IMG/VR virus record: IMGVR_UViG_2851976983_000001
Coordinates: 32,001-96,000 of that record
Length of the DNA: 64,000 nucleotides
Source: a virus
Taxonomy: Duplodnaviria; Heunggongvirae; Uroviricota; Caudoviricetes
Strand: one strand, 5' to 3'
This document shows, piece after piece, positions 24,324-25,376 of the stretch. Each line of letters starts with the position of its first letter. The first letter of the stretch is position 1. The notes below the pieces were generated by a model. That model saw only the letters and a list, made by a program, of their open reading frames with translations, ran no database searches and was not told the DNA's origin. The position numbers were made by a program, and so were the translations under genes.

Positions 24324-25376
24324 ATGACAACGTTGTCCAAAAACGTGATGCAACACAGGAAGGTATTGAAAGAAACTGGTTTGGCGTTTGCCAAATCTAT
24401 ACCGCTTGTTGGACCTCATATTGAGGCAGCGGAAAAAATGTTCACGTTGTTCTCAGAGATAAATGCGACGACTTGTCGTGATCGATTCAACCGTTACATT
24501 ATGGGCATTGGTGAAATTTGCGACGATGAGGTCGATATCTCAAGAGAACACTTTTCGGCGTTAGTCAAAAAGCTCGTGCTTGATGATGAAGACAAGAAAA
24601 CAGAATACTACATTCGCTTGACGGTAAGCCTAGCCCGCAGCAGCCTTAACGACGATGAAAAACTATTTTTTATCCACATACTGAGTGGGTTAACCTGCTT
24701 TGATATTGAATATGCGCGCAAACTTTACATCACAACAAGCTCGCCAATAAAAGGCTATAAATCAACTGTATTAGCCCAAGTTAGCCTCACATCACAAAAA
24801 AGTGGAATGGCTCTGAGATCGCTAAATAAGCTCATAACCTCGGGTCTCGTCTACGAAGACAGGGCTGGCGAGATCCAAGCGAACCCCATGTTCAAATTAA
24901 CAGATGAACTTGAGCGTCTTTTAGGATTTATTTTTCACAAGGATGATTTGGAGCCTGAAGCTTTATCTATTGAGCCAAAGGAAGAATACGACGTCATTAT
25001 CATTGAAAGCAGCGAAATCTATAGTGGGGCATATCCAAACAGCATTTATCGTAGTTTGAAAGCCGCCGGCATTAAGGTTTGCATAGAAAAAAATGAAGAC
25101 TGCATTACAACCAAGCTGGCAAAGTACTTCATCTCAGTCAAAACAGGGAGCGGACTCAATGGTGAAGGTGAGTGGATTGAATTTGGGCAAATTTACGTCC
25201 TCAAACGCCTAGATTCAAGCAGTAAACGTTTCTATGAAAATGAGCACAGTGAGACAGTCAGTATCAGCAATTTTAAACCTAAGGATAACGACCAAACATA
25301 TGATGCAAGTTTGCTAAATATAGCACTAAATAATATCGCTGCGTTTGTCCTGAACCGTCTGTCTCCCACAACTTAA
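24324..25376 (+). CDS. orphan hypothetical protein (350 aa), opposite strand to neighbours
   Basis: Long ORF; looks AT-richer than flanking genes by eye; divergent from the upstream gene across a palindrome-containing region. Confidence 0.6.
   Translation: MTTLSKNVMQHRKVLKETGLAFAKSIPLVGPHIEAAEKMFTLFSEINATTCRDRFNRYIMGIGEICDDEVDISREHFSALVKKLVLDDEDKKTEYYIRLTVSLARSSLNDDEKLFFIHILSGLTCFDIEYARKLYITTSSPIKGYKSTVLAQVSLTSQKSGMALRSLNKLITSGLVYEDRAGEIQANPMFKLTDELERLLGFIFHKDDLEPEALSIEPKEEYDVIIIESSEIYSGAYPNSIYRSLKAAGIKVCIEKNEDCITTKLAKYFISVKTGSGLNGEGEWIEFGQIYVLKRLDSSSKRFYENEHSETVSISNFKPKDNDQTYDASLLNIALNNIAAFVLNRLSPTT

Follow-up and report, generated by a model that had tools for sequence, protein, structure and literature searches.

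A single-gene cassette with distant similarity to Abi_alpha occupies an insertion hotspot in SSU5-type phage-plasmids

A lone plus-strand gene was analysed in a 64-kb stretch of tailed-phage DNA (IMG/VR record IMGVR_UViG_2851976983_000001, positions 32,001 to 96,000), referred to here as the window, to which coordinates refer unless a separate locus is named. The open reading frame (ORF) at 24324..25376 encodes 350 amino acids (aa) from an ATG start, and is not a replication gene: it forms a self-contained accessory cassette of one gene, exchanged horizontally, at a hotspot of insertion. By DNA identity, the window is an SSU5-supergroup phage-plasmid (SSU5/pHCM2-type): Salmonella phage SSU5 is 88% identical across the locus, the E. 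coli plasmids CP025897.1 and NZ_CP025870.1 are 100% identical over 18 kb, and pHCM2 of S. Typhi CT18 is about 91% identical over 18 kb. Comparison of the encoded protein with its relatives suggests a possible role in defence or exclusion. The reading we favour, to which we give an even chance, is Abi-alpha-like exclusion of superinfecting phages, expressed in the plasmid-carried state, with a swappable C-terminal domain as the specificity determinant.

The ORF is a real gene, as judged from the breadth of its family, from silent-only differences between copies and from a confident structural model. The profile of the 350-aa protein was matched by 90 clusters at 50% identity, mostly from enterobacterial plasmids and other mobile elements; a scan of species-representative genomes yielded 2 loci. 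The pHCM2 copy differs from the window ORF at three nucleotides, all three synonymous, so that the pHCM2 product WP_000209842.1 (‘hypothetical protein’) has the same 350-aa sequence. The start codon is backed by conservation of residues 1–6 among homologues, and an AlphaFold2 model computed on a 75-sequence alignment gave a mean predicted local distance difference test (pLDDT) score of 87.9 and a predicted template-modelling (pTM) score of 0.82. The original prediction, made from the sequence without database searches, had called this the only long plus-strand gene between the ligase and primase genes, and indeed no other plus-strand ORF longer than 180 aa was found there. It had also recognised no catalytic motif, in agreement with the lack of any match for the protein in Pfam, NCBIfam, PADLOC or PDB sequences. 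The only assignment was to phrog_22938, a family of unassigned function to which all 75 relatives examined also belong, and the literature searched contained no description of the ORF or of its hotspot.

The composition of the gene is foreign to its surroundings. The impression that it is richer in AT than its flanks, initially formed by eye, was confirmed by windowed computation of the G+C content (GC): the ORF has a GC of 41.4% and a third-codon-position GC (GC3) of 0.44, compared with 50.8–54.7% and 0.59–0.66 for its neighbours, three minus-strand genes. This places the ORF in the lowest 1.2% of 1053-bp windows across the 64 kb (mean 47.9%, standard deviation 3.3).

The boundaries of the cassette were defined by comparison with relatives in which the site is empty. 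In a blastn alignment with the empty-site plasmid L007, backbone homology stops at 24215 and restarts at 25394, and just about 21 bp separate the corresponding points in L007. The DNA present in the window and absent from empty-site relatives is therefore 1,178 bp long (24216..25393) and carries one gene, on the plus strand; it contains no further ORF of at least 50 aa that could encode a second product or an antitoxin partner, and no terminator or Rfam element was found in it. On the left it is flanked by a minus-strand backbone gene assigned to phrog_4248 (23346..24140, 264 aa), whose product is of unassigned function. On the right lies a DnaG-type primase gene (25378..26631, minus strand; phrog_47, E 3.3e-63, with Toprim and DnaG_N matches), the stop codon of which sits 1 bp past the end of the ORF stop codon.

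The hotspot between the primase gene and the phrog_4248 gene was found in three states. In most relatives it is empty: phage Cyrano and an E. cloacae plasmid have the primase gene adjoined by the phrog_4248-gene homologue, with a spacer of ~80 bp. The arrangement bearing the ORF was found in 56 of 798 plasmids, the latter being those that match the query region (primase or phrog_4248 gene). In the third state, found in about 83–102 plasmid records (about 10%), the site holds a plus-strand gene for a Sel1/tetratricopeptide-repeat protein of 381–417 aa (L008, 2482–3735; L009, 3049–4194; Pfam Sel1, E about 1e-54; GC 39–41%), and its equivalent position suggests a comparable accessory role. Among 5,426 complete E. 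coli genomes the cassette was found in seven, on a plasmid in every case. The gene is absent from Cyrano and from most of about 800 related plasmids.

The history of the cassette is decoupled from that of the backbone, since the identities of the cassette and its flanks differ in both comparisons available. Against pHCM2, the cassette is 99.7–100% identical, while the adjacent primase and helicase genes are 93% and 80% identical, respectively. Against SSU5 the pattern is inverted, with flanks at 89–98%, the N-terminal half of the cassette gene at 76% and the C-terminal half unalignable. Absence from most relatives, a site that is empty or otherwise filled, foreign composition and a history unlike that of the flanks together bear out the proposal in the original prediction that the gene is cargo. 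The picture that would have contradicted it, a gene of normal composition and housekeeping replication function conserved in all relatives, is clearly not what was observed.

The AlphaFold2 model of the protein has three parts: N-terminal helices (aa ~6–140), a winged helix (helices 148–156 and 161–172, strands 176–179 and 189–192) and a C-terminal alpha/beta domain (aa 220–346). Identity among close homologues delimits a conserved N-terminal module, aa 1–178 (24324..24857, plus strand), that comprises the helical region and most of the winged helix. It contains the family signature D87-D-E89-D-K-K92-T-E-Y-Y96 (24582..24611, plus strand), defined by conservation across the 75 family members; K92 is the sole invariant column, and D87, E89 and Y96 are at least 90% conserved. 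A reading of ‘DDEDKK’ as a PD-(D/E)xK nuclease motif was rejected, as in the model it sits in a loop that joins two helices, within a region that is wholly helical. The winged helix-turn-helix, about aa 125–212 (24696..24959, plus strand), is MarR/SlyA-like by sequence profile (E 7.2e-5), and the fold agrees. Only this portion of the 350-aa protein aligns to MarR/SlyA, the remainder being unrelated; the complete MarR fold of about 140–150 aa with N- and C-terminal dimerisation helices is absent, and no Pfam MarR match was obtained. A Foldseek search of the model against viral models returned nothing at E ≤ 0.001. The C-terminal domain resembles in shape the anticodon-binding fold of class II aminoacyl-tRNA synthetases (also seen in the CadC periplasmic subdomain, HpaA and the TolB N-domain), at 12–15% identity and without conserved functional residues; since this is a common alpha/beta fold, the match gives shape, not function.

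The variable C-terminal domain, aa 216–350 (24969..25376, plus strand), is swapped between lineages. Close homologues are 74–93% identical to the window protein over aa 1–178 (60% in the outlier P0005), and over the C-terminal 135 residues they divide into two types sharing just 30–35% identity. P0006 combines a window-type N-terminal half (93%) with the other C-terminal type (35%), and in P0005 the discordance is reversed. Nucleotide homology to the SSU5 copy breaks at 24856, and many distant relatives match the profile over its first ~240 positions alone. Such a combination, in which the core is conserved and the C-terminal domain is exchanged, is what a specificity module evolving under conflict would be expected to show, and the domain may be one.

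The one recurrent lead to a characterized family is Abi_alpha (DUF4393, PF14337). In Pfam, 19 of the 75 family members match PF14337, and any other Pfam family recurs in at most seven. The 11 matches with coordinates that were inspected share one register, aligning protein positions ~96–200 with profile positions ~37–150. The best is that of P0065 (26.4 bits, E 8.1e-6), a protein matched by the pHCM2-type profile at E 2.4e-9; P0065 and P0103 both carry a precomputed PF14337.14 label, which for P0065 is marked ‘(weak)’. The family was also aligned by hhalign to a set of nine DUF4393 phage proteins from Staphylococcus, Streptococcus, Bacillus, Moraxella and Roseburia; the Staphylococcus query protein of this set is identical in several phages and annotated as DUF4393 in RefSeq. 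The alignment spans 135 colinear columns with a score of 35.1 (E 2.9e-4, probability 40%), against scores of at most 17.4 for 12 reversed or column-shuffled controls, and sets the signature DDEDKKTEYY opposite the conserved Abi_alpha block ‘PALEASKFY’. The core of the protein, residues ~50–190, is thus probably a distant homologue of Abi_alpha/DUF4393.

The two families share further features. Within the colinear core of ~130 residues, both have an ‘E-x2-K-x-Y’ motif, a helical hairpin ‘F[IV]xIL..L[TS]..D’ and a winged-helix segment ‘S[IL]N.L...GL’, and both are without a recognisable catalytic motif. Both are also single genes of temperate elements, running by themselves on the opposite strand to early or replication genes. 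The DUF4393 gene is so arranged in phiNM1/80alpha, IPP23 and StauST398-5, and the cassette likewise consists of one opposite-strand gene with its own upstream region. The DUF4393 gene of phiNM1 lies at 8828–9685, and a scan of viral contigs with it returned identical copies only; its product is reported to be the prophage protein of highest abundance in S. aureus lysogens (bioRxiv 10.1101/2025.10.23.684294). The prototype, Abi-alpha (EF2833, 272 aa) of E. faecalis V583 prophage 6, confers abortive infection from a single gene; it blocks a Picovirinae phage, with premature lysis as its sole known phenotype (PMC6356687). The families differ in size (350 aa for the window protein, 272–285 aa for DUF4393 proteins), in hosts (Enterobacteriaceae plasmids and phage-plasmids for the window family, Gram-positive prophages for DUF4393) and at the C-terminus, where DUF4393 proteins have a short conserved tail, ‘KG...T.FG..F...C’, and the window protein has an extra swappable alpha/beta domain instead. 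Given this different C-terminal end and a score below the Pfam threshold, the window protein was not classed as a member of DUF4393. A separate phiNM1 gene between excisionase and repressor (L146, 1402–2334) encodes a 310-aa protein that bears no relation to the family; this protein has an R-x4-H (HEPN-like) motif close to the C-terminus and is presumably the Tha-type RNase mentioned in an S. aureus proteomics preprint.

Several results weigh against the link to Abi_alpha or against the function that it suggests. All 11 inspected PF14337 matches, at 26.4 bits for P0065 and 13–19 bits for others, are below the gathering score of 29 bits, and the window protein falls short of the gathering threshold, with no PF14337 match even at E 10. 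The hhalign probabilities for the family against DUF4393 are only 27–40%, the profile of close homologues alone fails to detect Abi_alpha (E 0.12), and no Abi-alpha PHROG was matched. With PADLOC (PADLOC-DB 2.0), the protein had no match at E 1 and no match recurred in the 75 relatives; DefenseFinder reports no system in pHCM2-like elements (bioRxiv 10.1101/2025.09.12.675607). Homology to Abi_alpha transfers a phenotype, not a mechanism, because the mechanism of Abi-alpha is itself obscure, and the abortive-infection phenotype has been shown for EF2833 alone (PMC6356687).

The neighbourhoods of homologues in other elements, taken from a handful of inspected loci and not from a statistical enrichment, which likewise limits the case for defence, are rich in toxin–antitoxin, restriction–modification and Abi genes. 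Homologues on IncF plasmids lie amid ccdAB, vapBC and a restriction endonuclease gene; others adjoin relE/parE and an AbiEii-like ATPase, or Ppl and a P-loop NTPase, and yet others are near parA or stbAB, AbiH, RdgC and a D12 methylase. A chromosomal homologue in Lelliottia abuts a methylase with a HEF_HK/HATPase module, an integrative element carries a homologue together with an integrase, ArdC and CcdA, and a metagenomic relative is near an XhoI restriction–modification system and DUF3800.

We propose a defence role on the strength of these neighbourhoods, the family-level similarity to Abi_alpha and the swapping of the C-terminal domain. In the proposed pathway, a promoter belonging to the gene would drive its transcription antisense to the lytic/replication operon, and the protein would accordingly be present during carriage of the element as a plasmid prophage. 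When another phage superinfects or a rival element enters, the variable C-terminal domain would recognise one of its components, and the conserved Abi_alpha-like core would then abort that infection, thereby shielding both the population of carriers and the resident phage-plasmid. A candidate for the promoter, TTGTAG-17 nt-TATGAT, was found by eye within the cassette (24255..24283, plus strand). The block GTTGT(A/C)GC...TATATGATTTCA is kept in the SSU5 copy, which is otherwise 76% identical; a consensus promoter scanner made no call at TTGTAG-17-TATGAT, and the element may be the cassette gene's own promoter. A broader proposal, that the family represents a branch of single-gene Abi-alpha-type immunity in enterobacteria that had gone unrecognised, and in which an effector/winged-helix core has been retargeted by recombinational swapping of a C-terminal sensor, is more tentative, and we hold it to be somewhat less probable than its opposite.

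One alternative is an accessory role in maintaining the plasmid or regulating genes, exerted through DNA binding. The winged helix of the protein, backed by both sequence profile and fold, would bind the element's own DNA, perhaps in concert with proteins of the KfrA type, and modulate stability, partition or the lysogeny/lysis decision; the C-terminal domain would accommodate a ligand or partner. In a Raoultella IncF plasmid and a K. oxytoca IncFIB plasmid, homologues with 31–40% identity are the second or third gene of a kfrA-headed operon (L003, 7297–8978, and L005, 4778–7032; KfrA_N, E 8e-22 and 4e-21), and the 40%-identical match of the Raoultella plasmid recurs in many K. pneumoniae IncF plasmids. 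In these two- or three-gene operons the homologue holds a position downstream of kfrA that recalls the KfrA-KfrB-KfrC operons of the IncP-1 plasmids R751 and RK2 and the IncU plasmid RA3; operons with KfrA and KfrC are established modules for plasmid survival (PMC8124265). Elsewhere, homologues adjoin parA, parM/stbAB or repE. Taken by themselves, the winged helix and the kfrA-operon position in some plasmids fit maintenance or regulation and exclusion equally well, a further point against the defence role. Unlike those operons, the window copy has no kfrA partner and no sequence relationship to KfrC. Homology to KfrC was rejected, as hhalign of the family against R751 KfrC gave a probability of 0.1% and E 0.44, and none of the 75 family members matched in Pfam the phosphoribosyltransferase-type (PRT-fold) domain carried by RA3 KfrC. 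Moreover, the linkage to kfrA is confined to one subclade, and the pairing looks secondary: in L003 the homologue overlaps kfrA by 4 bp, yet kfrA has a GC of 68% and the homologue 45%. Most SSU5-type elements replicate and persist without the gene, and both C-terminal domain swapping and replacement by a Sel1 gene would be unusual for a maintenance function. We therefore consider this explanation unlikely, at about one chance in five.

A second alternative is a factor for anti-defence or inter-element competition, which would shield the phage-plasmid from host or rival defence, or hinder competitors by means other than abortive infection. Many anti-defence genes are found among the accessory, opposite-strand, fast-evolving genes of phage-plasmids, and some homologues of the window gene are near ArdC, an orphan D12 methylase or RdgC, neighbourhoods typical of anti-restriction and establishment functions. 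Diversification of the C-terminal domain fits target chasing in either direction. However, the sole homology lead is to a defence protein, Abi_alpha, and to no known anti-defence family. The gene also faces away from the early/lytic operon and has its own putative promoter, which suits the carried state rather than entry, and most of the inspected neighbourhoods are toxin–antitoxin, restriction–modification and partition regions, not leading regions. This explanation seems to us somewhat less probable still than a role in maintenance.

A housekeeping replication protein, such as an initiator or an accessory factor of the primase or helicase, might be expected from the location between the ligase and primase/helicase genes and from a winged helix such as many initiators possess, but the existence of empty-site relatives effectively refutes it, the great majority of related elements keeping the ligase–primase–helicase block without the gene; with its foreign composition, the lack of similarity to any Rep protein, initiator or loader in Pfam, PHROGs, NCBIfam or PDB, and homologues also in non-phage plasmids and chromosomes, we regard it as highly improbable. 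An iteron-type Rep initiator was likewise rejected, as the protein has one winged helix only, no Rep matches, and is dispensable in relatives.

The gene had been described as diverging from its upstream neighbour across a region with the palindrome ATAAGTA-N6-TACTTAT. The palindrome is present at 24184–24203, as a 7-bp perfect inverted repeat inside a 183-bp AT-rich spacer (probability by chance about 0.1, a rough estimate); it is not a feature of the cassette, however, but belongs to the backbone, and is also present in relatives without the gene. It forms part of a longer element, TATTCTTACAGAAAnATAAGTA-N6-TACTTAT (24169..24203, without assigned strand), in which 31 of 35 columns are invariant across seven elements, among them two with an empty site (the E. 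cloacae plasmid and phage Cyrano) and two bearing the Sel1 gene, while the surrounding DNA falls to about 68% identity. This conservation in seven diverged relatives argues that the palindrome is functional. The block lies just upstream of the phrog_4248 gene, with the cargo junction about 10 bp past it, and is probably a regulatory site of the backbone operon; it may act as an operator/promoter element or serve as a recombination landmark.

The site resembles the defence hotspots of temperate phages and satellites (P2/P4, and PD-T4-3 in the SSU5 group), in which a fixed backbone junction holds alternative low-GC, opposite-strand single genes or nothing, and a second comparable site that holds PD-T4-3 lies 3.7 kb away in the window. 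It differs from them in that neither occupant of the primase-side site is a recognised defence system. The gene at the second site (29048..29815, plus strand) is again a lone plus-strand gene of low GC (44.5%, GC3 0.44), and its product matches the PD-T4-3 defence protein (PADLOC, E 1.3e-23) and a LEM-3-like GIY-YIG nuclease domain. At the same position, pHCM2 of CT18 has a different plus-strand gene for a 351-aa protein and a DUF2971 gene, so that this looks like a second cargo hotspot.

Many lineages of S. Typhi harbour pHCM2, a plasmid labelled cryptic for more than two decades, and phage-plasmids of the SSU5 type are common among clinical E. coli, Shigella, Klebsiella and Salmonella. If exclusion by an Abi-alpha-like protein is correct, it would give a concrete phage-exclusion function to pHCM2 and to its relatives in E. 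coli, Citrobacter and Klebsiella, and, together with the Sel1-repeat alternative and the nearby PD-T4-3 site, would define defence hotspots in SSU5-type phage-plasmids. It would also bring plasmids of Gram-negative bacteria within the range of Abi_alpha, a family that is abundant but whose mechanism is a blank. The gene is a candidate exclusion determinant overlooked by current defence finders, and offers a directly testable account of part of the benefit to the host; the natural chimeras of N- and C-terminal domains are ready material for mapping a sensing half and an acting half. Should it prove to be a maintenance or regulatory protein instead, the interest would be modest and local.

Elsewhere in the backbone, library matches identify an ATP-dependent DNA ligase gene (21443..22765) and a DnaB-type helicase gene (26641..27981), both on the minus strand. 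Upstream of the ligase block, an ORF-poor stretch contains a tRNA-Asn (GTT) gene at 19794–19868 (minus strand); SSU5 has the same, and phage Cyrano has three tRNA genes at this place. The 5′ untranslated region (UTR) of the cspA thermoregulator was matched in full length by Rfam at 5035–5453 (plus strand, 185.7 bits), which implies that the phage-plasmid carries a cold-shock-protein gene with an RNA thermosensor. A second Rfam match, to the ALIL pseudoknot, a frameshift element of IS3-family transposases, lies at 45954–46070 (plus strand, 121.8 bits). It falls within a stretch of raised GC (44–47 kb, 52–54%), which suggests an insertion sequence (IS) in the element.

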